64,000 nt of DNA from Spirochaetia bacterium (GTDB lineage: Bacteria; Spirochaetota; Spirochaetia; DSM-2461). This document shows positions 1 to 14,097 of the stretch, one piece after another; the stretch's first letter is position 1, and each line of letters opens with the position of its first letter. The notes beneath the pieces were generated by a model. That model did not search any database and was not told the DNA's origin. It worked only from the letters and a program-made list of their open reading frames with translations. The stretch is from contig OY764216.1 of NCBI GenBank assembly GCA_963668315.1, positions 4,864,001 through 4,928,000 of the forward strand. The letters run 5' to 3'. The translations under genes were made by a program, and so were the position numbers.

Positions 1-224
1 CCGACAATGATATTCATATGCCGGAAGGAGCCTGTTCCGTAAACGACGCAGTGGATTTCCCGTTTAAAGGGGTTCAGCTGGTAGATCGTAGCGATTTGTA
101 TCAGCTGTTCCTTTTCCGGGTTTGTCAGGGAATTCTCCAAGTTGAAAGATTTTAGATATGCCTGGATCAGATCTTGTGTGACGTCTGTAGAAGAGAGAAT
201 GTCCTGTTGATGTTCCTTATCCAT
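1..224 (-). CDS. bet: Phage Bet/RecT-family single-strand annealing recombinase, N-terminal part (runs off the window edge)
   Basis: Absent from the ORF track; translated by hand from ATG 224 with RBS AGGAGG at 231-236: MDKEHQQDILSSTDVTQDLIQAYLKSFNLENSLTNPEKEQLIQIATIYQLNPFKREIHCVVYGTGSFRHMNIIV. The LNPFKREI..V.Y..IIV motif is typical of Bet/RecT. Confidence 0.75.
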   Translation of the reverse strand, partial: MDKEHQQDILSSTDVTQDLIQAYLKSFNLENSLTNPEKEQLIQIATIYQLNPFKREIHCVVYGTGSFRHMNIIV

Positions 225-332: not shown

Positions 333-501
333 ATTTGCCCTCCTTTGTTATTTGTTAGAGGGATAATATATGTTTGAATTCTGGTGTTTTGCGGATTTCC
401 TTGTCTATTTCGAGCTTGATAGGAAATGTATGGTTTTCAATATAACAGGTGTATACGATAGGATTTTGATGCAATAATCATATCAGAAAAGAAATTTCGG
501 T

Positions 502-531: not shown

Positions 532-554
532 AGATATAGTCAGACATTTATATT

Positions 555-584
555 GAAAACAATAGAATTAATAAGTTATATAGA
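555..584 (+). other. attI-like (or secondary) recombination site at the start of cassette 1; crossover G/TT at 575/576
   Basis: GTTATATAGA (575-584) is the exact reverse complement of TCTATATAAC (1664-1673) at the R'' end of attC1; the upstream sequence does not form an attC hairpin. Confidence 0.6.
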
Positions 585-686
585 AAACGGGTGCATACAA
601 ATGGACGTTTTTTTATGAAAAAAATATTAATTTTAATAAGGAATTTCTTTTTTATAAAAGTGTAAATAAGAATTAAAGGTATTAAA

Positions 687-1616
687 ATGAGAATCTCATT
701 CAATCTGAGGAATATTAGCTGGAATACTGTTGGGACTATCTTCAGTATTATTTTTAGTGGTTTAACATTAATTTTCTTAATAAAAAACTCAAATATTGCT
801 AATTCATCAATTAGAGAAATGCATGATCAGACCATTTTAGCAGAAAAAACAATAGAAGAGATGAAAGCGCAACGGATACAATCACAGAAACCCGTTTTAT
901 ATTTGTCGTCGGAACACTTTTCTATCTACGAGAAACCAGACTCATATACATTTGGACTTGGTAATATAGATCCAATTGATTTTGATTGGGTTAATGAAAC
1001 AGAAGTAGGAATTATAATTAATCAAAGTATAATTTTTTTACAGAATACGGGAATTGGTCCAGCATATGAGATTGAAATACAATGGGATTTTGACATAGAT
1101 GAAATGATCAAAAACCTCAAGACTTACTCAGAATTTTTAGGCGATGATATAGAATCAAAAAATACATTATTTTTCATTGATGCTTTGGAAACATCTTTAA
1201 AGATACTAGGGACTCAAAACCACAATTATCGATATCCTATAGCCAAAGTAGAAGATGGATTCTATATCGAAATTCCTTGGTTATTCTTCGCTTATTGCAA
1301 TTACATTACTTTTATTGATAGTAATGACCTTAGCTATAGTCATATTGATGAAACATCAAAATTTATTTTGGGAAAGAGAACGGAGTATCTAGAATACTAT
1401 GGACATAAATTAATCTCATTTAATAGCAATCCAGTTAATTTAATGATTAAATATAAAGGTATCAATGGTGAAAGTTATAGTATGAAGAAACAACTTAGAT
1501 TTATGGGATTTGTTCGATTATCACCCCAAGATTATTTAATAGAAAATTTAAAAGACGCAAATGATTGCTTTATAGAAATAATATCGATTGATGAAAAAGA
1601 ACAACAAAAAAGCTAA
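687..1616 (+). CDS. Cassette 1: hypothetical membrane-anchored protein
   Basis: 309 aa; N-terminal TM helix, coiled coil ending in QKPVLY, N-G-GPA motif (NTGIGPAYEI). Confidence 0.75.
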   Translation: MRISFNLRNISWNTVGTIFSIIFSGLTLIFLIKNSNIANSSIREMHDQTILAEKTIEEMKAQRIQSQKPVLYLSSEHFSIYEKPDSYTFGLGNIDPIDFDWVNETEVGIIINQSIIFLQNTGIGPAYEIEIQWDFDIDEMIKNLKTYSEFLGDDIESKNTLFFIDALETSLKILGTQNHNYRYPIAKVEDGFYIEIPWLFFAYCNYITFIDSNDLSYSHIDETSKFILGKRTEYLEYYGHKLISFNSNPVNLMIKYKGINGESYSMKKQLRFMGFVRLSPQDYLIENLKDANDCFIEIISIDEKEQQKS

Positions 1617-1666
1617 TACAGATGAATAAAATAAAAGAGAAACAAGTGATAGTGAAATTTAAATCT

Positions 1667-1764
1667 ATATAACAAAGATTTGCTACGGATTTGCCTATGT
1701 CACAATTATTGCTGTTCGCAATAATTCCGCCAAATACGGCAAACCGCAGAAATCGGCGTTATAC
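1667..1764 (+). repeat. attC site 1 (98 bp)
   Basis: ATATAAC...GTTATAC; stem GATTT[G]CTACGG[A]TTTGCC / GGCAAACCGCAGAAATC with two extrahelical bases; inner AATTATTGC/GCAATAATT stem. Confidence 0.92.
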
Positions 1765-1767
1765 CGA

Positions 1768-1796
1768 TTGCAAATTCAAAGAAATAGGAATATACT
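1768..1796 (+). promoter_or_regulatory. Cassette-internal sigma70-type promoter, TTGCAA-N17-TATACT
   Basis: Near-consensus hexamers with a 17-bp spacer at the 5' end of cassette 2. Confidence 0.6.
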
Positions 1797-1829
1797 CCAA
1801 TAATAACATTGAAAATACGGAGTATAGTC

Positions 1830-3038
1830 GTGATAACAAATATAATAGCAACCTATAAAAGACTCATCCAGCACACAAATTATACTCATCACAGATATAT
1901 CTATAAAGAATTTAATATAAATAATAGGCTAACAGGACTAATTGGTCCAAGAGGAACAGGAAAGACAACACTTCTTATTCAATATATTAAAGAGAATTTA
2001 AAAATTGATGATTGTATTTATACGTCATTAGATAATATTTATTTTACGCAAAATAATTTAATCGAATTTGTAAATGAATTATATGATATTTATGGGATCA
2101 GATATTTCTTCTTCGATGAAACACATAAATATCCGAACTGGAATCAAGAATTAAAAAATCTTTATGATTCCTACCCTGACATAAAATTAATCTTTTCTGG
2201 AAGTTCAAGTCTAGATTTAATTAAAGGATCTTATGATTTATCTAGAAGGGGAGTCATATTCAGAATTGGAGGAATGTCTTTTAGAGAATATTTACTCTTC
2301 AATAATATAGCAGATATCCCTTCAATTACATTTCCCGAATTATTAGAGAATAGATCAAGATATGAAAACGAAATAGGATCTATGAAGAAAATATTGGGAT
2401 ATTTTAATGAATATTTAGGAAAAGGATATTATCCATTTATTCTGGAAGATAACCAAAGTTACAGCCAAAAAATCCAAAGAATTATTGAAAAGACGATTTA
2501 TGAAGATATTTCAAATTACTATAAATTGAAAACAGAAAATCTGATAAGTTTTAAAAGAATAATTTCTTATATGGCAACAATTCCACCAGGAGAATTAAAC
2601 AGAAATAACATAGCAAAAAATATAGGATTAGATAATAAGACAATACAGAATTACCTTGATATTCTTCAGGAAACAGGACTGATTCAATTCATATTAAAGA
2701 ATAAAGCAGGAAGCAATATTTTAAAGAAGACAGAAAAAATATTCCTGGATAATACAGATATTTATAGATCCACAAGTGAAGAAATCGGTTTTGAAACACC
2801 AATTGGAACGTTAAGAGAGATATTTTTTATTAAAATGCTGTTGAATTCTGGGAACAAAATCCATTTCAGCGAAATTGGAGATTATCAAATCAATAATATC
2901 AATTTCGAGATTGGTGGTAAGAATAAAGACCTTAAGCAAATAAAAAACAATTTGGAAAACTCATATTTAGTAAAGGATGATATAATTACTGGGAGTAAGT
3001 ATGAAATCCCGTTGTACCTGTTCGGATTTCTGTACTAA
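1830..3038 (+). CDS. Cassette 2: AAA+ ATPase (AAA_14 + DUF4143 type)
   Basis: Walker A GPRGTGKT, FFFDETHKYPNW, SGSSS, DLSRR, C-terminal FEIGGKNK...IPLYLFGFLY; likely GTG start at 1830 with GGAG at 1819-1822 (track start 1809). Confidence 0.88.
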   Translation: MITNIIATYKRLIQHTNYTHHRYIYKEFNINNRLTGLIGPRGTGKTTLLIQYIKENLKIDDCIYTSLDNIYFTQNNLIEFVNELYDIYGIRYFFFDETHKYPNWNQELKNLYDSYPDIKLIFSGSSSLDLIKGSYDLSRRGVIFRIGGMSFREYLLFNNIADIPSITFPELLENRSRYENEIGSMKKILGYFNEYLGKGYYPFILEDNQSYSQKIQRIIEKTIYEDISNYYKLKTENLISFKRIISYMATIPPGELNRNNIAKNIGLDNKTIQNYLDILQETGLIQFILKNKAGSNILKKTEKIFLDNTDIYRSTSEEIGFETPIGTLREIFFIKMLLNSGNKIHFSEIGDYQINNINFEIGGKNKDLKQIKNNLENSYLVKDDIITGSKYEIPLYLFGFLY

Positions 3039-3051
3039 GAAAAAAGAGACG

Positions 3052-3150
3052 GTATAACAAACATTTGAACTTGATTCGCCTACTGTCATACTTTTTGCAT
3101 TCGCAAAAAACACGCCAGCTGACGGCTCACAAGTTAAATGGGCGTTATAC
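3052..3150 (+). repeat. attC site 2 (99 bp)
   Basis: GTATAAC...GTTATAC; stem CATTT[G]AACTTG[A]T / ACAAGTTAAATG; inner TTTTTGC/GCAAAAA stem. Confidence 0.92.
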
Positions 3151-3168
3151 GGATAAAATGTAGTAAAA

Positions 3169-3948
3169 ATGACAAAACATAATGAAGAGATATTAAAAAT
3201 TTGGAATATGGTACTAAATCTCGCTATTCAAATGCTTAATAATGAAGAAGATGCGAAAGATGCCGCACAATCAATATTTGAAATAGTATCAGAGAAAATT
3301 GAAACTTTTAGGAATGAATCAAAGTTAAGTACATGGATATACCGGATTTCATATAATTATCTGATTGATGAAATAAGATATAGAAATAGTGAAAAAATCA
3401 CATTTGAACTTTTTGAAAATGAAATAACACAATTTAAAGAATATGAGAATGAATATAATCTTACCCAAGAAGAAGAAAAAATATATATAGAAGAAATAAA
3501 GATAGGATGTACAAAAGCATTGTTACAATGTTTAAATCCTGAAGATCGCTTTATTTTCATATTAGGAACAATTTTCAATTTTCCGCAAAAAGATGCTTCT
3601 GAAATATGTAATATCTCGTATGATAATTATCGTACCCGGTTATCAAGATCAAGAAATAAAATAAAGAACTTCATGTCAAATAATTGTGGTCTCGTAAATC
3701 CAGATGCAAAGTGTAAATGCAGCAAAAGGATACTAATCGCAAAAGAAAGAGGAAGAATAAATTTTGAGAAATCTTTATACAAAACAAATAGCAATAGGAT
3801 TAATAAATATATTATTGAAATGAATGATATAGATGAAATTTCAAGAATTTATCAGGACAATCCATTCCTCGAAATTAACAATGATGATATCTCCTGTAAA
3901 ATCCAAAATTTGGGAATAGTACAAGAGATATCAACAATAGTTATTTAA
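3169..3948 (+). CDS. Cassette 3 gene A: ECF RNA polymerase sigma factor with a Cys-rich C-terminal extension
   Basis: Region 2 (DAKDAAQSIF...FRNESKLSTWIYRISYN), region 4 (YRTRLSRSRNKI), then NCGLVNPDAKCKC. Confidence 0.88.
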   Translation: MTKHNEEILKIWNMVLNLAIQMLNNEEDAKDAAQSIFEIVSEKIETFRNESKLSTWIYRISYNYLIDEIRYRNSEKITFELFENEITQFKEYENEYNLTQEEEKIYIEEIKIGCTKALLQCLNPEDRFIFILGTIFNFPQKDASEICNISYDNYRTRLSRSRNKIKNFMSNNCGLVNPDAKCKCSKRILIAKERGRINFEKSLYKTNSNRINKYIIEMNDIDEISRIYQDNPFLEINNDDISCKIQNLGIVQEISTIVI

Positions 3949-4258
3949 TTAAAGTACCAGATGAAAAGCCAATAAGTATTCCTAATATTACTGTTGTAAT
4001 ACAAATTTGAAAGAAAGCAGAATTATCTTGTCTGAAAATAAGAAAAGATAAAGGAATAAAGAAAAGGGAAGTAATGATTAATCCATTCAAAATAGAATTA
4101 TCAACTATTCTGAAAAAAGTATTCACAATCCCAATAATAAGCCACATGGTGAATGCAGAAAGAATAAATAACTTATCAAGCTTTTTAATTAGCATTGGAA
4201 CTATATCTGCCAGTGCTGCTACCAAACCAATAAGAATAGAAATAATCAAATTGTTCAT
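3941..4258 (-). CDS. Cassette 3 gene B: small 4-TM membrane protein, antisense to the array
   Basis: 105 aa with four hydrophobic segments; AGGAG RBS upstream; convergent with the sigma gene and overlapping its stop. Confidence 0.8.
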   Translation of the reverse strand: MNNLIISILIGLVAALADIVPMLIKKLDKLFILSAFTMWLIIGIVNTFFRIVDNSILNGLIITSLFFIPLSFLIFRQDNSAFFQICITTVILGILIGFSSGTLIK

Positions 4259-4278
4259 ATAATCTCCTATATCAATAT

Positions 4279-4306
4279 TAGACGTAAAAATTATTAATTT
4301 GTGACA
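4279..4306 (-). promoter_or_regulatory. Candidate ECF-type promoter TGTCACA-N15-CGTCTA for the 4-TM gene
   Basis: Plus strand TAGACG (4279-4284) and TGTGACA (4300-4306); resembles TGTCACA/CGTC ECF promoter motifs. Confidence 0.5.
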
Positions 4307-4338
4307 GAAAAAAAGAAAAAAAATTAAGAAAAAAAGTA

Positions 4339-4347
4339 TGATATAAT
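4339..4347 (+). promoter_or_regulatory. Extended -10 promoter TGaTATAAT pointing through attC3 into the Sir2-HerA cassette
   Basis: Perfect TGnTATAAT preceded by A-tracts. Confidence 0.45.
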
Positions 4348-4365
4348 GAACATTGGCAACGCACC

Positions 4366-4463
4366 GTATAACAATGAATTGGAGCCGAATTGCCTATGTC
4401 ACAATTATTGCTGTTCGCAATAATTCCGCCATGGACGGCAATCAGCTCAATTCGGCGTTATGT
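4366..4463 (+). repeat. attC site 3 (98 bp)
   Basis: GTATAAC...GTTATGT; stem GAATT[G]GAGCCG[A]ATTGCC / GGCAATCAGCTCAATTC; 42-bp centre (4390-4431) identical to attC1 (1691-1732). Confidence 0.92.
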
Positions 4464-4490
4464 CTACAAAATAAAAGATGAGAGGAATAC

Positions 4491-5684
4491 ATGGAAAAGA
4501 TTAATGTCATTACAGAGATAAAAGAACTTAAAAATCAATTATCCTATTCAAAACGATATGCATTTTTCTTCGGAGCTGGAACATCTTGTGCTCTTGGCGT
4601 TCCAAATATTGCGACTCTCACTTCGTCAGTTGAGGATTTATTAAAGGAAAAAAATAAAGAAAACTTTAAAGTGATTAAACAAGATTTAGAATCTTCTATT
4701 CCAGATAAAACAATAAATATTGAGGATATATTAAATCAAATTAGACAGATTCGTATGATTACGAGAGAAAGAGAAGATAAAAAATATCTTGAAATCACAG
4801 GTAAGAGCGCTAAAGAACTAGATAACTCTATTTGTAAAAGTATCTATGAGATTATATCCCAAAAAGAATCAGATGCCGACTTAACAAATACTAAAAGATT
4901 CTTCGCATGGCTTAGTATGCAAAATAAGAATTATTCGTCAGAAGTATTTACTTCAAACTATGATATGATTATTGAGAAATCCTTAGAGGGTATAAATTAT
5001 CCATATTTTGATGGTTTTGTCGGCGCATATGAACCGTTCTTTTGGCAAGAAAGTATTGATAAATTTGTAGATAATAATGACCTAACAAAAGATTGGATAA
5101 GGTTATGGAAAATTCATGGATCATTAAATTGGTTTTGGAAAGTTAATGACGGAAAAGAACAAATTATACGCGGTAGTAAGATATCTGATATTCGGACACT
5201 TTCTAATGAGCTAGTAATCTATCCATCAAAGGAGAAGTATAATTCCTCAAGAAAACAACCCTTTGTTTCTTATTTTGAGAGACTTAAAAAGGTGCTTACT
5301 AGTGGAGAAGTTTTATTTGTTTTTTCTGGTTATTCATTTTCTGATCAGCATATAAATGATATTGTTTTTGATGCTTTAAGACAAAATAATAGATTACATA
5401 TAGTGGTGTTCTCCTATTTAGATGAAGAAGTAGAAAATTTGTATAAAATTTTATCTTCGTACCTAAATATATCAGTATACGGTCCACAAAAGGCTATCTT
5501 AAGAGGAAATATATATGAATGGAATACACTAGAACAAGATGAAGAATCTATTAAAACAAATTCTATATATTGGGATAATACAAAAAAATCACTCACTATA
5601 GGTGACTTTAATAAATTGGTAGATTTTTTAATTAAATCTTCTGGGAATGTAAAATCCATTGAGGATGAAGTTAATGGAAAATGA
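4491..5684 (+). CDS. Cassette 4 gene 1: SIR2-family (SIR2_2) NADase of a Sir2-HerA defence system
   Basis: FFFGAGTS, TSNYD, KIHGS, GYSFSDQHIN sirtuin motifs; overlaps the herA start. Confidence 0.9.
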   Translation: MEKINVITEIKELKNQLSYSKRYAFFFGAGTSCALGVPNIATLTSSVEDLLKEKNKENFKVIKQDLESSIPDKTINIEDILNQIRQIRMITREREDKKYLEITGKSAKELDNSICKSIYEIISQKESDADLTNTKRFFAWLSMQNKNYSSEVFTSNYDMIIEKSLEGINYPYFDGFVGAYEPFFWQESIDKFVDNNDLTKDWIRLWKIHGSLNWFWKVNDGKEQIIRGSKISDIRTLSNELVIYPSKEKYNSSRKQPFVSYFERLKKVLTSGEVLFVFSGYSFSDQHINDIVFDALRQNNRLHIVVFSYLDEEVENLYKILSSYLNISVYGPQKAILRGNIYEWNTLEQDEESIKTNSIYWDNTKKSLTIGDFNKLVDFLIKSSGNVKSIEDEVNGK

Positions 5685-7458
5685 TATTACATATCTTGGA
5701 AAAGTCATACGAGTTGATTCAAATATTGTAGAAGTTGAAATTTCAGATTTGATTCCTTCTTCAACTCCAGTTATCAATGGCAAGTTGTATAAAATTGGTC
5801 AGATTGGAACTTTCATCAAAATGCCAATAGGTAATATTACAATTTATGGAATTGTTTCATCCGTAAGTAATACACCAACGAAAAATGATGATAATCAATT
5901 AAGGCAGCTAGTTGGATCGCGATATCTGAGTGTACAACTAATAGGTGAAAAAATCGGCGATTCTGATTTTGAGAGGGGAATCGGAACATATCCCACAATA
6001 AATGATGAGGTTCATTTAGTAATTGAAGAGGATCTCGCAAATATTTACGGTAATGATAAAAATGGATCAATTGAAATAGGAACTCATTCATCCTCTGAAA
6101 ATTTAAAAGTGTATGTTGATTTACATAAATTGGTTTTAAGGCATAGTGCTATTTTAGGTTCAACAGGTAGTGGGAAATCAAATACAACTGTTAGTATACT
6201 GAAATCGATACTAAATGATTATGATGGTTCAAGGGTTTTGCTAGTTGATCCACATGGGGAATATGCTTCTGCATTTCCAGATGCCACAGTTTTTAAACTA
6301 AATGATCCAGACTCTCCATTGTATGTACCATTTTGGTTAATGAATTTTGATGAATTAGCCTATTTCTTAGTTGGAGCAAAGCCTACCGATGATCAAAAAC
6401 CAGAATATAGATTATTAAGAGAATGGATTGTTAAGTATAAAAAAGAGCATTGTGAACTTAAAGCTGGAAATGTAAATCCTAATTTTATAACAGCAGATTC
6501 ACCTATTCCATTTAGTGCTAGAAAACTTTGGTATGATATGAATTGGTGGGTAAATGCATCTTTTGAAGAAACGACAAAAGATAAACAAACCGTAGATAAT
6601 GCTTGCATAAAAAAAGATGAAAGCGGGACTGAGCTTGTAGGAAATTATGAAGGGCTAGAACCTGCAATATTTGAATCATATCAAATGGGATCAACTGCAC
6701 CATATAAATCAAAGCATCAGGATTTCTATACGTATGAGAAAAAGATCTTGAATAGACTTAAGGATTCAAGATTTGATTTCATGTTTCATCCAGGAGATTA
6801 TAAAGATGAAAAATCACCGAAAGATTTACACAATTTGCTTAATGAGTGGATTGGCAGTGACAAAAAACTTGCCATATTAGACTTAAGTGGCGTTCCTTTT
6901 GAAGTTTTAGATATTACTATTGGACTTATTACTAGATTTGTTTATGACAGCATGTTTTGGGGAAGAAAGGAATCATATACAGGAAAACAAAGACCAATAT
7001 TGCTCGCCTATGAAGAAGCACATACTTATCTTGGTAAAAATGAAAATATTAGTTATTCACGGAAAGCTGTAGAACGAATTTTTAAAGAGGGAAGAAAATT
7101 TGGGGTAGGTTCATTAGTTATATCCCAAAGACCTTCTGAAATATCTGAAACAATCTTAGCACAGATTGGAACATTTATCTCTTTGCGTCTGACTAATTCA
7201 GCTGATCAATCAATAGTAAAATCGTCATCTCCAGATAATTTAAATAGTTTAATTGATTTATTACCATCATTACGAATTGGTGAAGCCATTATTGTTGGTG
7301 AATCTATAAAAATACCATCAAGAGTTAGAATAGAATTAAATCATCCTAGACCAACAAGTGATGATCCAGATATTGAAAAATGTTGGAAGAAAAAACATGA
7401 ATCTAATGATGATAATTATAAGACTGTTGTTACAAAGATAAGAGAACAAAGAATATAA
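5674..7458 (+). CDS. herA: Cassette 4 gene 2: HerA/DUF87-family ATPase (HAS barrel + helicase)
   Basis: RHSAILGSTGSGKS, VDPHGEY, YEEAH, EGRKFG, ISQRPSE; likely ATG at 5674 overlapping the sir2 3' end. Confidence 0.92.
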   Translation: MENDITYLGKVIRVDSNIVEVEISDLIPSSTPVINGKLYKIGQIGTFIKMPIGNITIYGIVSSVSNTPTKNDDNQLRQLVGSRYLSVQLIGEKIGDSDFERGIGTYPTINDEVHLVIEEDLANIYGNDKNGSIEIGTHSSSENLKVYVDLHKLVLRHSAILGSTGSGKSNTTVSILKSILNDYDGSRVLLVDPHGEYASAFPDATVFKLNDPDSPLYVPFWLMNFDELAYFLVGAKPTDDQKPEYRLLREWIVKYKKEHCELKAGNVNPNFITADSPIPFSARKLWYDMNWWVNASFEETTKDKQTVDNACIKKDESGTELVGNYEGLEPAIFESYQMGSTAPYKSKHQDFYTYEKKILNRLKDSRFDFMFHPGDYKDEKSPKDLHNLLNEWIGSDKKLAILDLSGVPFEVLDITIGLITRFVYDSMFWGRKESYTGKQRPILLAYEEAHTYLGKNENISYSRKAVERIFKEGRKFGVGSLVISQRPSEISETILAQIGTFISLRLTNSADQSIVKSSSPDNLNSLIDLLPSLRIGEAIIVGESIKIPSRVRIELNHPRPTSDDPDIEKCWKKKHESNDDNYKTVVTKIREQRI

Positions 7459-7470
7459 AGGGAGATAACA

Positions 7471-7680
7471 ATGGAAAGAAAGTACATAGAATCATCAATG
7501 ATATCTAGTATAGGATTTGATTTTGCAAGCTCTACCTTAGAAATTGAGTTTCGTGATGGTGCATTATGGCAATATTATGATTTTCCAGAATCAATGTGGT
7601 ATGAATTTGAATCAGCTGAATCCCAAGGAAAATTCTTTCATAGGGAAATAAAAGATCAATACACAGGTTCTCGAGTATAA
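7471..7680 (+). CDS. Cassette 4 gene 3: KTSC domain protein
   Basis: 69 aa, SSMISSIGFD...LEIEFRDG..WQYYD.P..W..F..AESQGKFF...IKDQY; GGGAG RBS. Confidence 0.9.
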   Translation: MERKYIESSMISSIGFDFASSTLEIEFRDGALWQYYDFPESMWYEFESAESQGKFFHREIKDQYTGSRV

Positions 7681-7692
7681 ATAAAAATCGAG

Positions 7693-7790
7693 ACATAACA
7701 ATCAAATGCAACTGTCATGGCAAACTGTCACAAAATCCGCTTACGCATATTTTGCGCCAATTCACCATGCAGCTGATTTGGGCGTTATAT
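7693..7790 (+). repeat. attC site 4 (98 bp)
   Basis: ACATAAC...GTTATAT; stem CAAAT[G]CAACTG[T]CATGG / CCATGCAGCTGATTTG. Confidence 0.9.
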
Positions 7791-7874
7791 TACAAATGGT
7801 AGAATAAAAAACATCTTTACTTTTATACAGTAAAGGTTAAACTTATTACGTTCATTAAAATAGGGAGAAAGAAA

Positions 7875-8339
7875 ATGAAAAGAATAATTGTTTTACTAAG
7901 TGCTTTATTAGTATTTGCAGGTTGCGCTTCTCAGGTCACCGTGAATGAAGAGGATCGACAATATCAAGAAATCGTTGATTTTCCAGGCAAAAATAAAGAT
8001 GAGATATTTGATCTGATTAGTCAAAGTATGTCCAATGTTTTTGTTAGTGCAGAATCTGTAATCGATTATGAAAATTCTGAAAGTGGAAAAATTATTGGAA
8101 AAGGAGTTGCTGAGATTATCTATACAATAGCTCCTACATATACTCATTATACTTTAACAGTTGAGGTTAAGGATGAAAGAGTTCGATTTAGCTTTACTGA
8201 TATGTATTTCCCTCCATCTGGAGTATTGGGAAGAATGCCTTTAACTAATCAAGGTCAAATAGATTCATTTTCAGAGCATGCTAGAAAATTAGTGAATGAA
8301 ATTACAGAATTCTGTCAAGATAGTAATGATAATTGGTAG
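7875..8339 (+). CDS. Cassette 5: lipoprotein (DUF4468-like); cassette lacks its own attC
   Basis: Lipobox VFAG-C; SVIDY....GKIIGKG...VEVKDERVRFSF pattern. Confidence 0.75.
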   Translation: MKRIIVLLSALLVFAGCASQVTVNEEDRQYQEIVDFPGKNKDEIFDLISQSMSNVFVSAESVIDYENSESGKIIGKGVAEIIYTIAPTYTHYTLTVEVKDERVRFSFTDMYFPPSGVLGRMPLTNQGQIDSFSEHARKLVNEITEFCQDSNDNW

Positions 8340-8395
8340 AATATCCTACCTTGAAATAGATAAAGCAACCCTTTTGTCTGTAAAATTAGAAAAAG

Positions 8396-9070
8396 TTAAT
8401 CAGTCTCCATATTCAAATATCTTTTACCTGTAAACCACTGCTCATCTATTTCCATTAACAGAGCCGCGATCAGACGATCAACGGACTTCCTATTTGGAAA
8501 TATCATGGCTACCCTTGTTCGCCTCTTTATTTCTTTCATCTGCCGCTCTGCCAAATTTGAAGTTCTTAGCCGTCGCCAATGAGCCTTTGGCATTGAGAAG
8601 ACGGTAAGGGACTCGGGGATATTCTCATCCATCCAGCTACTCAGATCGGGCGCCGTTTCCTCATATTTTTTAACAGCCATTGAAAGAAAGCGTTTCGCTT
8701 CTTCTCCATTGGGTGCGTTAAAAATAGTTCTGATGTCTTCTGCTACCTCCTTCTCCATGCTCTTCTTGGGAACGTGATGAGAAGCATTCTGCTGGAGATG
8801 AAACTGACAGCGATGCCAGGGAACCGTAGGAAAAACAGCCTCTATTGCAGATTTTAGACCACTATGGGCATCTGAAGTTATCATTCTGACTCCATGTAAA
8901 CCTCGGTCAACCAATCCAGCGAGGAACTTTCTCCAATGAACATCAGCCTCGCTGAGTTCTGTTGAAATCCCAAGAACCCTTCTCATTCCCTTATTATCAA
9001 CTCCATAAGCAATTAGAACGGCTGCCGAAACGACAGCTCTATCCACACGAGCTTTTTCATAGGTCGCATC
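8396..9070 (-). pseudogene. IS256 transposase, C-terminal fragment of the outer element
   Basis: DATYEKAR, MITSDAHSGL, WHRCQFH, RTSNLAERQMKEIKRRT; joins in frame to 10426-10914. Confidence 0.9.
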
Positions 9071-9078
9071 CACAATGA

Positions 9079-10425
9079 GATAGTGTCCAGACATGTTCGC
9101 AACTTTCCTTTCAAGAAGCCATCAAAATTCCCCATCAGGCAGCCTGACCTAATTTAATTCTTTGTTCATCTATCGATTTTTCACTGATATACCGTTTTCC
9201 CGAAGCCCAGTCTTCTGAGTATTCAATCAGGTAACAACAGACTAGTCTAAGGTAGGAGTCAATACTGGGAAAGATTCCCACAACACGAGATCGTCTACGG
9301 ATTTCCCGATTCAATCGTTCCAGTTGATTGGTAGAAGCAGTTTTCCGGCTGTCTATTTCTGAGAATTCATAATACTGAAGAGAGTCTTCTAATCCGTCTT
9401 CAAGACAAGTCATGGACTTCGGAAATTGTTCTTCAAATTCCTCTATAATTCGGTATGCATATTCACGGGCCGATTGGGAGTTCGGTTGATTCCAAATCTG
9501 CTTAATTCTGCCGGCAACAGCTTCTTTATCCCTGGCAGGAAGATGGGACAGGATGTTCCTCATAAAATGAATTTTACAGCGTTGCCAGGAGCAACCGATG
9601 AGTTCCTTTCTTATGGCGGCTTGAAGTCCCAGATGGGCATCAGAGACACAGAGCCAGGCATTTTTAAATCCTCTTGCTTTAAGAGACCTGAACAGTTCGG
9701 TATAAGTGCTTTCTGATTCTTCCTGCATTGGTTCAACAGCAAGGATTTCTTTGAATCCTTGTGAATTAACACCAGATACAACCATCACAGCCATATTTCT
9801 CACTCTTCCGTTATACCGGATCTTTTCATAGAGGGCATCAACCCAGATGACAGGATATTCTGAATCAAGAGATCGATAGCGGAATTCATCTACCTGTTCA
9901 TCAAGTCCCTTATTGATTTCAGAGACCTGGCTGGCTGAAATATTTTCAATGCCCAGACTCATAGCCAATTTCTCAATCTTTCTGGTTGAAACACCGTTGA
10001 TAAATGCTTCCTGGACAACCTGAATCAGAGCTTGCTCGGATCTCTTCTTTTCTGTTACAAAGAAGGGAATATATCCGCCTTTTCTGAGCTTGGGGACAAG
10101 GAGATACAGTGTTCCAAGACGAGTATCAAATCGGCGTGGTCGATATCCAGAAAAATGGGTGGATCTTCCCATAGAATGAGACCCCTTTTGAGCTCCTACT
10201 TTATTCGCCGCTTCTATTTCCATAAGCTTTTCCAGTAGCCATTGCAATAAGCTGAAAATGGGATCCGGCTCCGATATGAATTGGAGTAGCATTTTTTCCA
10301 GATTCCCATTATCATTTTCCTTAGCCATCGTTTTTCTCCTTGTGGTTTTAGTAGTGCATTACCATTCTGGAGAATTCGATGGCTTCTTTCAATAATTAAA
10401 ATTGCGAACTTGATTGTACGCTATC
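9079..10425 (-). mobile_element. Inner IS256-family element (1347 bp) with 8-bp target duplication CACAATGA
   Basis: IRs GATAGTGTCCAGACATGTTCGCAACTTT / GATAGCGTACAATCAAGTTCGCAATTTT; TSD at 9071-9078 and 10426-10433. Confidence 0.93.
9135..10328 (-). CDS. IS256-family transposase (intact)
   Basis: 397 aa; GVSTRK, WVDALYEK, VSDAHLGL, WQRCKIH, STNQLERLNREIRRR. Confidence 0.95.
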   Translation of the reverse strand: MAKENDNGNLEKMLLQFISEPDPIFSLLQWLLEKLMEIEAANKVGAQKGSHSMGRSTHFSGYRPRRFDTRLGTLYLLVPKLRKGGYIPFFVTEKKRSEQALIQVVQEAFINGVSTRKIEKLAMSLGIENISASQVSEINKGLDEQVDEFRYRSLDSEYPVIWVDALYEKIRYNGRVRNMAVMVVSGVNSQGFKEILAVEPMQEESESTYTELFRSLKARGFKNAWLCVSDAHLGLQAAIRKELIGCSWQRCKIHFMRNILSHLPARDKEAVAGRIKQIWNQPNSQSAREYAYRIIEEFEEQFPKSMTCLEDGLEDSLQYYEFSEIDSRKTASTNQLERLNREIRRRSRVVGIFPSIDSYLRLVCCYLIEYSEDWASGKRYISEKSIDEQRIKLGQAA

Positions 10426-10914
10426 CACAATGAGATAGCGAAAAGCTCCCAGAGGGCGATTCCGCCACTTAGAAATCTCTTCATCCAGCAGTGCGGTTGC
10501 TTCAGAAACCTGGGATTGGGAAACTTCGAAGCCGCAGAGCTGTTCTACAATTTTGGTTACTCTGCGAGTTGATACCCCCTGGATATACATCTGAGCTATT
10601 GCCATTTTCAACGCCCTTTCGCTGCGGCACCCTTTTTCAATGCTGCCAGGATAGAATTCCATCCCACGGACCTGCGGAATCTCGATAGGGATCTCACCTA
10701 CACGAGTTCGAATCTTCCTGCTTTTGTACCCGTTTCTATGGCCAATGCGATCGTCATTCCGTTCATAATGACTGGCTTGGATTGCCTTCTCTTGCTCTAA
10801 CCGCATAGATAAATTCATTATTGAACTTATGACCTTTGTTAATCCTTCTCGATTATCTGCCTGGAGCTCTTCAATCATTTGATCGAAAACGGTATAGTAA
10901 TCCTCGTTAGTCAT
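10426..10914 (-). pseudogene. IS256 transposase, N-terminal fragment of the outer element
   Basis: RNGYKSR..TRVGEI...PQVR, MYIQGVSTRRV; ends at YLIV at the insertion point. Confidence 0.9.
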
Positions 10915-11136
10915 GATGCCTTCTTTTGTTTTTGGTCGAACTAATCGAAGACTGATTGGCTAACTTTTTCAAGCCCCCTTTATTTCTAATTTACAGACAC
11001 TATTGTACACTATCCGAAGGTTAAGGCATTGCTGGAGAGAGAGTAGTGTAATCATACAGGTCCGATAGGGGGATCTGGAATGATGTTTGAGTGCACTTTT
11101 TAAGATGGAGTTGTTTTTTATTTACGGGTTCTCATG

Positions 11137-14097
11137 CTATTGATCCAGAATCTTCCGGATATATTCCATTAAAATACGAGGAGAATAGGGTTTGGCCAGA
11201 AAATGCACGTCCTTCCCGATCTGCCCTCTCTGAATGATGGCTTCATGGGTATATCCGGATGTATAGATAACATGTATTTGAGGATACATCTTTCTGATCT
11301 CCTCTTCCAGTTTCCGGCCGCCCATGCTGGGCATGATCACATCGGTTAACAGTAGATCCATCGGTTCGGATAATCCCCTGATTTTCTTCAGAGCATCCTT
11401 GCCGTTACTGGCTTCAATTACGGAATATCCGTTTTTCTTCATAGTCTGGCTGATGAGGTTCCGGATTATATCTTCATCTTCAACAAAGAGGATTCTTTCC
11501 GTTCCCATGAAAACAGACGGGCTGACGGGATTCCCGGATTCAGCCGTTTCCTGTTCATCGGTCAGGGGAAGAAAGATATTGAAGACGGTACGTTCTCCCA
11601 CAATGCTCTCGATCCGGATATCTCCCCGATTCTGCTTGACGATCCCGTAGACAGTAGCCAACCCCAGACCGGTTCCCTGCCCCTGCTCCTTCGTCGTGAA
11701 AAAAGGCTCGAAAACCTTATCACGGAACTCCTCCGGAATTCCTTCCCCGCTGTCTTCGATCTGCATGTGGACATATTTCCCGGGATCTAAATCCAGCTGA
11801 AATGGTCCTCCTGCATCATGGTGATAGGGGCGGGTCCTAATGAAAATCTTGCCTCCCCGGGGCATGGCGTCTCTGGAGTTGATGACCAGATTCATAATGA
11901 TCTGCTCAATCTGAGATTTGTCGAAATGAATCTTCAATTCCAGCTTGGGTGTAACCAGGCAGAGCTCGATATCCTCACCTATCACTCTGCGAAGTATTTT
12001 CTGCAGATCAATGACCACATCATTCAGATTCAGAACGACCGGTTTGATCATCTGCTTTCTGCTGAACATCAGCAGCTGCTGGACCAGATCGGCGGCTCTA
12101 AAGCCCGCGTCCTGTATTATATCCAGGTAAAGTTCGAACTCCTCCTGATTATCATGGGAGCCCATCAGCTCCGCCGAGCCGTTGATCGCGGTCAGCAGGT
12201 TGTTGAAATCGTGGGCGATTCCACCGGCGAGCCGGCCCACAGCCTCCATTTTCTGCGACTGGTGCAGCTTCTCTTCCAGCTCTTTGCGCTCCCTTATTTC
12301 ATTCCTCAGTTCCTCTGTTCTCTTTTCTACGGTTTGCTCGATTTTGTTGTAAGACTCCACAAGGGCTTCCTGGGTTTGCTTCAGCTCGGTAATCAGCATG
12401 ATGCCGTCCAGAGCGGAGCTGATATACTTTGTCAAAAAGCGGTAAACCGTTCCATCCAGAGGACCTGACTCAAAAAGGGCAAACCCCAGCTGCTTATTCT
12501 TGTGATGAAGAGGCATCATGAGATAATTGTGGTGGCCGCTGCTGAACAGAGAGCCGCTGTGATCGATGAAATCATGGGTGGGAAAGCACGCTCCCTCCTC
12601 ATGGATGCGCTCCGTTCCGTCTTCCACATACTCATATATCAATCGTGACTCTGCCAGGGGATTCTCCGGCTCCTTGTATAGAAAGAGGCTGCAACGGGGA
12701 ATCCGCAGTTTTTTTAAATTCTTTCCCAGTATGCCCATAAGATCCCTGAAGTCATAGGAGGTCAGAATTTCTTGGCCCAGCTCGTTGAGAAACGCCTTAC
12801 TTGATGAGGAGAGCCTCTGCTGTTTCATCATCTTCCGCATAGACATTTCGCTGGCCACCACATTCAGGCGGGATAGAACGGTGTGAAAAGTCCCCATGGT
12901 CTCGCAGGAATCAACCGAGATCCGCTGCTCAATGAGGGAAATCAGATTCCGGGCGAATGAGATGTCTCCGTCCCGGGGCTGAAAAAGATCGAGCAGCCGC
13001 TCAAAGGATCTGACAGAAAGAAGGGAATCCTTATCCTTCAGATCCCTTTCCAGGCACTGCAGGAGCTCCCTGATCTGCCGATCGAGCTCCGCTGACCGGT
13101 CCCTGCCGAACAGAGCCTTCAACTCCTCGAAAAGATTCTCCTCTCCTGCGGAAAAGGAATCCTCCCCATCTATATTTCGGTGGAGATCAGAGATACTCCG
13201 AACGCCCGCTGATAAACAGCCGCAGGATTGGCGTATCACGGGAACGGAAGGAAGGATCACTTCCTCATTTCTTGCCTTACCAGTCCGGATCTCTTCCAGT
13301 AGAAGTTCCAGGCTTGTATATCCCTGTTCGTAAAAATCGGCCTTGACGGAGGTCAGAGGAGAACTGCACCAGAGCCCCTCTTCCACGCCGTTGAATCCGG
13401 CCAGAGCCAAATCGCCGGGAATCCAGATATTGTTCTCCCGGCAATAATCGTACACCCCCATGGCCTGGGCATCGCTGGTACATACGACGCACTGGATATC
13501 CTCCTTAAGGCGTAGCTTCCTTTCATTCAGAAAATTATCCATACTGCCCATTCCCGCGCCGGAAACCCAATCGCCATAATCAGAGACGAGTTCCTCCCGA
13601 TAAGGGATGCGGTTATCCTTCAGGGCGGCGCAGTAGGCGTTAAAACGCTTATGGGTCCCGATATGATGCTCCAGGCCCCGAATGTAGGCGATGCGGGTAT
13701 AGCCGTGCTCTTTTATCAAATGGGTGATTAGGTCGTACATACCTTGAAAGGAATCGATGGACACACAGGTTCGTCCCGGAAGCTTCTCTCCCAGGGAGAC
13801 CAAGGGGATATTGCGGAACCGGGTGGAATGAAAGCCGATAATCTCATCGGCGGGAACGAAATTACTCAAATTGGAAACCCAGCTGATGACACCGACGAAA
13901 GAGCTGCTCCGGACGATATCGTATAGGATATTGCCCTGACTTAAAGATTCCCAGGTGTCTTTTAATCTTCCCCCGGGGATGCAAATCAAATCTACATGAT
14001 TTCTACGGGCGGCATCGCTGATACCGGCCCAGAGATCACGGCCATTCCGCATTTCGATATTGGATGCAAGATAACAGACGGTTAAATTCTTATTCAT
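11137..14097 (-). CDS. Hybrid sensor histidine kinase/response regulator with an N-terminal LacI-type sugar-binding domain
   Basis: Peripla_BP-like N-terminus ending in [15 protein letters not shown]-box; GTGLGL; C-terminal REC (DVIMP). Confidence 0.9.

Follow-up and report, generated by a model that had tools for sequence, protein, structure and literature searches.

The 64,000-nucleotide stretch of DNA analysed here (the window) comes from the genome of a Spirochaetia bacterium (assembly GCA_963668315.1, contig OY764216.1, positions 4,864,001 to 4,928,000 of the forward strand), and holds between its positions 575 and 8358 an array of five gene cassettes of the integron type. The integron integrase, IntI, recombines the folded bottom strand of an attC site with an attI site at G/TT, and the original prediction, made from the sequence alone, described this stretch as an integron cassette array with four attC sites. 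Cassettes and sites are arranged as follows.

575..1757, plus strand: cassette 1, encoding a 309-aa orphan protein with a hydrophobic N-terminus (687-1616)
1667..1764, plus strand: attC1, 98 bp
1758..3143, plus strand: cassette 2, encoding an AAA_14 and DUF4143 ATPase of 409 aa (1809-3038), PADLOC candidate PDC-S01
3052..3150, plus strand: attC2, 99 bp
3144..4456, plus strand: cassette 3, encoding an ECF sigma factor (3169-3948) and, convergent with it, a hydrophobic protein of 105 aa (3941-4258, minus strand)
4366..4463, plus strand: attC3, 98 bp
4457..7783, plus strand: cassette 4, encoding SIR2 (4491-5684), HerA (5659/5677-7458) and KTSC (7471-7680) proteins
7693..7790, plus strand: attC4, 98 bp
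7784..8358, plus strand: cassette 5, encoding a DUF4468 lipoprotein (7875-8339), attC missing

Cassettes and attC sites of the array

All four predicted hairpins, 98-99 bp long and each running from xxxTAAC to GGCGTTAT, are present. When their bottom strands were folded, a check that had been proposed with the prediction, z-scores of -5.4, -3.9, -4.6 and -5.0 were obtained for attC1 to attC4, and none of 200 shuffled sequences was equally stable in any case. Two extrahelical bases had been claimed for each site. This holds for attC1, attC3 and attC4, in which both are single unpaired G residues, but in attC2 it is true of the first G only, the second being paired beside an asymmetric loop. The top-strand G residues at positions 16 and 22 are invariant in all 30 aligned attC sites of the genome, and the extrahelical bases on the bottom strand are C and C; in class 1 attC sites they are G and T. 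In a stem-pairing test of these 30 sites, for which the structure was derived from the same alignment, 95.4% of cells were paired and 16 of the 22 pairs held double changes, with slid controls at 33-47%. The stem of the attC sites is therefore supported by compensatory changes. The ends of each cassette are complementary to one another as predicted, with 10, 9, 9 and 9 contiguous bases in the matched pairs compared to 5-7 in all 12 mismatched pairs.

attC sites were called by three models of our own and by a structure-only detector, which misses a long class of attC sites. The detector found attC1 to attC4 and nothing on either strand of window positions 12000-64000, while the Rfam search returned no match for the array sites. 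The search for further copies of the repeats, also proposed with the prediction, showed 59 attC-like sites in 10 clusters across the whole genome according to the three models. attC2 is 96% identical to one site of the host integron described below. The GC content of the cassettes is 28-31%, compared to 51% for the genome. Overall, the array shows the anatomy of integron cassettes, with R'' and R' boxes, a stem with extrahelical bases, and ends that are complementary at G/TT.

The cassettes had been proposed to be bona fide mobile cassettes inserted at G/TT, and three of the five recur elsewhere with the same boundaries and other neighbors, which supports their mobility. Cassette 2 has a copy in genome G015 with 81% identity over 1750-3148, the alignment ending at the junctions. 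A copy of cassette 3 (99% over 3141-4459) lies behind another attC in a 10.7-kb contig of sequencing run X5, and one of cassette 4 (96% over 4454-7703) lies behind a different attC in a contig of run X6. The flanks differ from those of the window in all three cases, so that an identical gene order without attC boundaries, the finding that was to speak against the prediction, was not what we saw. Past its R'', the X6 copy of the SIR2-HerA-KTSC cassette (window 7693-7720) runs into a different attC body, of which 16 bases are seen. This sequence suggests that the attC may have been replaced on one and the same cargo.

In each of the four full cassettes the frames are open and the ends clean. The DNA of cassette 5 ends 19 bases past the stop codon, where R'' would begin. 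The cassette 1 protein matched only itself in a homologue search. In cassette 4 the SIR2 and HerA genes are adjacent with intact frames, and their PADLOC matches to the SIR2-HerA system are strong (E 3e-125 and 6e-159), while both fall below the NCBIfam equivalog cut-offs, with 81/500 and 325/850 bits. By analogy with the known system, they could act as an NAD-depleting phage defence. The original prediction called the cargo enriched in defense-type genes. This is partly supported: one cassette of five carries a recognized system, SIR2-HerA, and another a candidate family, PDC-S01, but the other three match no defense model of PADLOC.

The integrase, the array head and the host element

From 30 kb upstream to 36 kb downstream of the window start, no integron integrase gene (intI) was found, and tblastn detected no intI remnant at E <= 1 in these 66 kb. 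The host genome (G000) is 5.62 Mb long in one contig, and a single gene in it exceeds the TIGR02249 cut-off. This intI (G000 3134145-3135380) lies 1.73 Mb away and heads its own array, with its attI still in place; it encodes an open 411-aa frame in which the R, H-x-x-R, H and Y motifs are present. The proposed genome-wide search for intI thus returned one gene, and none at the array. What was predicted is a real cassette array but not a complete integron. With at least two co-oriented attC sites and no nearby intI, it is a clustered set of attC sites with no integron integrase (CALIN) as defined in PMC4889954.

Neither the sequence at the array head nor the element that carries the array was part of the original prediction. 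The features concerned are the following.

1..224, minus strand: 5' part of bet (RecT family, 288 aa), over the TIGR01913 cut-off
430..445, minus strand: recurrent box, TTATATTGAAAAC, as an inverted copy that faces bet
548..577, plus strand: attI-like docking site with crossover G/TT at 575; 18/22 to the attI of the G014 integron and 38/40 to an orphan site in G014
8359..11014, minus strand: nested pair of IS256 insertion sequences (IS), the outer copy without target-site duplication

The head was compared with 14 reference attI heads, namely the host's and those of 13 of 20 relative loci beside intI; the other 7 loci, in which no head could be read, were not used. To the left of 575, 18 of 22 bases agree with the head of the integron of G014, a genome of the same genus, which ranks the site first among 139,394 GTT sites of the genome, the next best having 16. 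Over the 14 references the window junction ranks 1, 6, 19, 33 (for the host's own intI), 89, 152, 446, 457 and 1395, and poorly with the remaining five, four of which are apparently one base out of register. The likeness is strong for one relative and moderate for five further references, in part by way of the recurrent box. The orphan site of G014, identical at 38 of 40 positions, lies at the end of a contig, next to a WYL gene and a restriction enzyme. From these sequence comparisons, the site at 575 is likely an attI. A search for a Pc promoter upstream of the head gave three plus-strand consensus matches at 502-568, with 5 found against 3.4 expected.

The recurrent box is a dyad, TTATATTG-AAAA-CARTATAA, with 32 half-site matches in the genome compared to 6 for a reversed control. 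It occurs 16 bases before the intI start, at 430-445 (inverted) and 548-567 of the window, within cassettes and, near tRNA-Ala/Ile clusters and upstream of apparent rRNA operons, as tandem repeats of 37 bases. Copies of the box lie, among other places, at G000 253034, 1933274, 3135396 and 4041547. Among the 32 copies, only that of the window head has a GTT 27 bases on, which is the spacing in the G014 attI and in the orphan site. The box was considered as an SOS operator and rejected, since it is absent upstream of recA and lexA.

To the left, the genome continues with a tRNA-Met gene (G000 4839184), an element E1, a 45-bp repeat of the tRNA 3' end at 4859179, and then a second element, E2, which carries the array. 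After the repeat, E2 encodes a tyrosine integrase of 440 aa and a 213-aa partner protein, followed on the opposite strand by DUF6573, SSB, Gam-like and Bet proteins, and then by the array. bet is the first gene of this operon and is divergent from the array; the rest of the operon, the integrase, the partner and the repeat occupy the 0-4.8 kb left of the window. Only 350 bases, with no IS among them, separate the bet start from the first cassette. One unitig, from a run that probably represents the source sample, spans the tRNA repeat to attC1, which serves as an assembly check only; run X4 covers the stretch in low-depth fragments only. In G014 the same tRNA repeat and four genes precede the orthologue of window 11137-14097, and the array thus lies inside an island. 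E2 has the mark of a tRNA-integrated element, a tyrosine integrase adjoining a tRNA 3' repeat. The SAM-like domain of the integrase is of the phage type, and the protein does not match TIGR02249. The partner belongs to no Pfam family and resembles uncharacterized phage proteins. No relaxase, replication, oriT or packaging function was recognized among the six backbone genes of E2.

A direct repeat was found at the left end of the element only, and the DNA to the right of the array has none. Most IS256 copies show an 8-base target duplication, but the outer one here does not, and the sequence is consistent with an IS256-linked deletion that would have taken away attC5, the element's right att site and some flank. 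No IS copy in the genome carries the matching flank of such a deletion. Two tRNA-Met 3' copies (G000 4587508 and 4587765) were considered as the right att site and rejected, as they belong to another truncated sibling. The loss of its right att site has probably left the element stranded.

SSB- and Gam-like-type proteins trigger type III Sir2-HerA in E. coli, according to PMC13434337. E2 encodes SSB and Gam-like proteins in one operon with bet (1-224) alongside SIR2-HerA (4491-7458), and by analogy a conflict or sensor link between them is possible. A second set of Bet, Gam-like, SSB and DUF6573 genes, with a ParB-like gene, is located at G000 4.51 Mb (L014:8795-16380), with no array beside bet.

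Sibling elements and a second cassette system

Four elements of the genome, E1 to E4, share the integrase (28-41% to the window's) and the partner (39-46%), each at a tRNA end, and three of the four, E2, E3 and E4, carry co-oriented arrays without intI. E3 (L009:5100-14855, minus strand) contains an OLD-like nuclease cassette and a four-gene cassette encoding a type II cyclic oligonucleotide-based antiphage signaling system (CBASS: cyclase, E2-E1, JAB and SAVED effector). E4 has 7 attC hits, which belong to a second, longer attC class. No other GTT site of the genome matches the head of a G015 array, led by a recombinase of 266 aa without the IntI insertion, as well as the E4 head does (19/22); against the equivalent head of its own genome the E4 head ranks fourth. 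Hence E2 combines an IntI-type head with IntI-type attC sites, and E4 the head of the other system with the attC class of that system. No other argument for functional heads that are served in trans is as strong as this match of head type and attC class in both elements.

In E1 (L001:716-13935) we observed a WYL gene and, with 60 repeats, a complete type I-C cas operon, while the partner gene is frameshifted; the 59 spacers gave no full-length match to self or to an element. In E3 a recombinase and an IS91-like transposase are inserted right after the last attC, and the head contains an inverted repeat that is perfect over 7 bases. Another array, at G000 4546823, has a truncated E4-like segment at its head.

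In the host genome, the second system comprises a 266-aa XerA-like recombinase without the IntI insertion (G000 5010737-5011531; L011:2737-3640, with the array extending to G000 5037295), divergent from about 18 second-class attC hits and beside tRNA-Arg/Asp. The same layout is seen in G015 (L027) and G033 (L029), both without an intI over the cut-off, and L028 (G016) and L034 (G019) are further loci of this group; G034 has 8 second-class attC sites and neither enzyme at the thresholds used. IntI-class attC sites are nested in the loop of second-class ones (L010:12365-12626; L027:7810-8070; G000 3437806, 5021656 and 5025230), an arrangement that could, as judged from sequence, let cassettes pass between both systems. 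The ends of window cassette 1 resemble degenerate arms of a nested site. At second-class attC sites there are also inserted elements, which we take to be IS110-like, with a cassette duplicated between copies (L011:7858-13540; L008:11082-12170).

The arrangement is only weakly general. The partner is present in 3 of 37 relatives, and a Bet homologue in none of the 37. Its family comprises 16 close and 116 distant proteins, and none of 32 scanned passed a Pfam cut-off. It gave 19 hits in 400 sampled genomes of the class, and among the 16 distant ones viewed, one stood directly behind an integrase-like gene. Bet homologues were found in 2 viral contigs and integrase homologues in 6. The wider integrase family was represented by 128 loci, many of them short (80 of 93 metagenome hits kept, plus 48 genome hits), 74 of which hold a tRNA gene, nearly all just upstream. 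In G002 (L207:5536-9012) and G011 (L203:2322-5830), remnants of small terminase, HTH and integrase genes are followed directly by intI-less arrays. The heads of these arrays resemble the 3' end of an attC, and the L203 head sequence also ends an attC; going by these sequences, the terminase-integrase elements may integrate into attC sites.

Origin of the array and comparison with known systems

The window holds a real cassette array without its own integrase, with a likely attI as its head, inside a small element at tRNA-Met, and we consider it probable that its cassettes were inserted in trans, most likely by the single IntI of the host. E2 would integrate through its own 440-aa tyrosine integrase, and the head at 575 would work as an attI, with which host IntI would recombine the folded bottom strand of an incoming attC at G/TT. 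Since incoming cassettes would be inserted at the head, cassette 1 would be the latest arrival. By such loading in trans, which we infer, the element would gain defense cargo. A wider proposal, that a family of small integrative elements in spirochaetes copied the docking sites of two host cassette systems (IntI and the short recombinase without the IntI insertion) and harvests defense and other cassettes without any cassette enzyme, is possible, though we regard it as doubtful.

Several results weigh against loading in trans. The left half of the attI match is the box found 32 times in the genome, and the 18/22 score therefore overstates specificity; with G014 left out of the matrix, the junction comes only within the best 5.7% of AT-rich sites. 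The head is also nearer to the G014 attI (18/22) than to the host attI (14/22), so that the array may have arrived loaded. The E3 head matches no attI, and a search for it in the 37 relative genomes gave one three-mismatch match compared to 4 control matches. Four integrase-plus-partner elements (two in G005 and one each in G001 and G013) have no array in the DNA examined, three of them lying at or near contig ends. None of the 128 wider-family loci had a partner or an attC-model match, and hairpin matches were found in 2, by the detector that misses the long class. The contigs of 5 runs, in which rare forms are dropped, contained neither an excised circle nor an empty site, and each cassette gene of the window is present only once in the genome.

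The main rival explanation is decay. A complete integron could once have been part of the element, or have been taken up by it from another spirochaete, with intI then lost by deletion, the array being a frozen remnant that is no longer loaded. We judge this rather improbable, though it fits a head that is more like a foreign attI than like the host's, and a spacer that keeps two boxes at about the intI-attI spacing of G000 and G014, with bet in the place of intI; loss of intI is also the standard origin of CALINs in PMC4889954 and PMC11389934. Against it stand the lack of any intI remnant in the 66 kb, the open frames and clean ends of all four full cassettes, and the need for the same loss in each of three siblings. 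It is unlikely that the first cassette entered at a chance attG site (GWT) in an AT-rich dispensable spacer and later ones stacked at attC sites, the attI likeness being that of a common host-factor box. Such a site needs GWT only and has been proposed for small CALINs (bioRxiv 2022.09.11.507474), the box is recurrent, and the E3 head and two solo cassettes match no attI; but the window's is the one box copy in 32 with the GTT spacing of the G014 sites, 6 of the 14 reference heads rank the junction in the top 152 of 139,394 sites, and E4 independently matches a second type of head.

That the array is a piece of the host chromosomal integron moved by IS256 is very unlikely, being already largely refuted. 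IS256 copies do stud the host integron and flank the window array, and IS-made CALINs are common (PMC4889954), but the left end of the array has no IS, 8 of the 22 bases of its head are not those of the host attI, which is still in place, and no other IS copy has a matching flank. We give least credence of all, next to none, to insertion of cassettes by the element's own tyrosine integrase, which would make it a new kind of integron. Arrays adjoin such integrases in three siblings and in the terminase-integrase remnants of G002 and G011. The enzyme, however, is of the phage type by its SAM-like domain and does not match TIGR02249, 74 of the 128 wider-family loci have a tRNA gene and hardly any has an attC, and the attC sites of the window are those of the host IntI array. 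PMC4889954 gives 50 cases of non-IntI tyrosine recombinases near attC sites, which were judged not to be IntI.

If loading in trans is correct, it would provide anti-phage cassettes like SIR2-HerA and CBASS with a way out of a sedentary integron. Under the wider, doubtful proposal, attI-bearing parasites of this kind would turn some CALINs into active traveling platforms in place of decayed integrons. CALINs are mostly read as decayed, and are about as common as complete integrons (2961 compared to 2760 in PMC9024848). With two siblings whose docking site and cassette class match two host recombinases, the loading of CALINs in trans becomes open to direct testing.

CALINs, their possible use in trans and attG insertion are already known, and the array alone is ordinary. 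In our literature search, which extended to spirochaete integrons and covered few subscription papers and preprints without supplements, we found no description of attI-headed arrays lacking intI in tRNA elements, prophages, satellites or integrative elements. Like the sedentary chromosomal integrons with anti-phage cassettes of Darracq et al. (bioRxiv 2024.07.02.601686), the window array has the same cassette anatomy, and defense cargo; the terms 'Sir2' and 'HerA' do not occur in the main text of that preprint. Unlike sedentary chromosomal integrons, it has no intI, is short and sits on a mobile element. Kieffer et al. (bioRxiv 2024.07.02.601719) reportedly also described sedentary chromosomal integrons carrying anti-phage cassettes. 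With the attG insertions and single attC sites lacking an integron integrase (SALIN) of Loot et al. (bioRxiv 2022.09.11.507474), the array would share an IntI that acts in trans away from its own attI, and a crossover in GTT; attG, however, consists of GWT and short flanks only, while the window head resembles a real attI over 22 bases.

Cassette 4, as a putative system, resembles the SIR2-HerA anti-phage system (PMC11472057, PMC11514289, PMC13434337) in that its SIR2 and HerA stand side by side and both match strongly in PADLOC, but it stays below the equivalog cut-offs and has a KTSC gene following. E2 is similar to hitcher elements, such as integrative mobilizable elements and phage satellites (PMC11389934), in being small, tRNA-integrated and helper-dependent, with its own integrase and defense cargo. 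CALINs are themselves counted as hitchers of integrons in that source. E2 differs in that no relaxase, replication or packaging gene was recognized in it and in that its cargo consists of integron cassettes. The origins given for CALINs are integrase loss, rearrangement and secondary sites, and attI, which is unknown for most integrons, was not searched for (PMC4889954, PMC9024848); use of CALINs in trans is held possible (PMC4889954, PMC11389934). The window array is like the CALINs of PMC4889954 and Neron et al. 2022 (PMC9024848) in having at least two attC sites, no nearby intI, about five cassettes, an IntI elsewhere and an IS at one end. It is unlike the CALINs described there in that it keeps an attI-like head and sits in a tRNA-integrated element.

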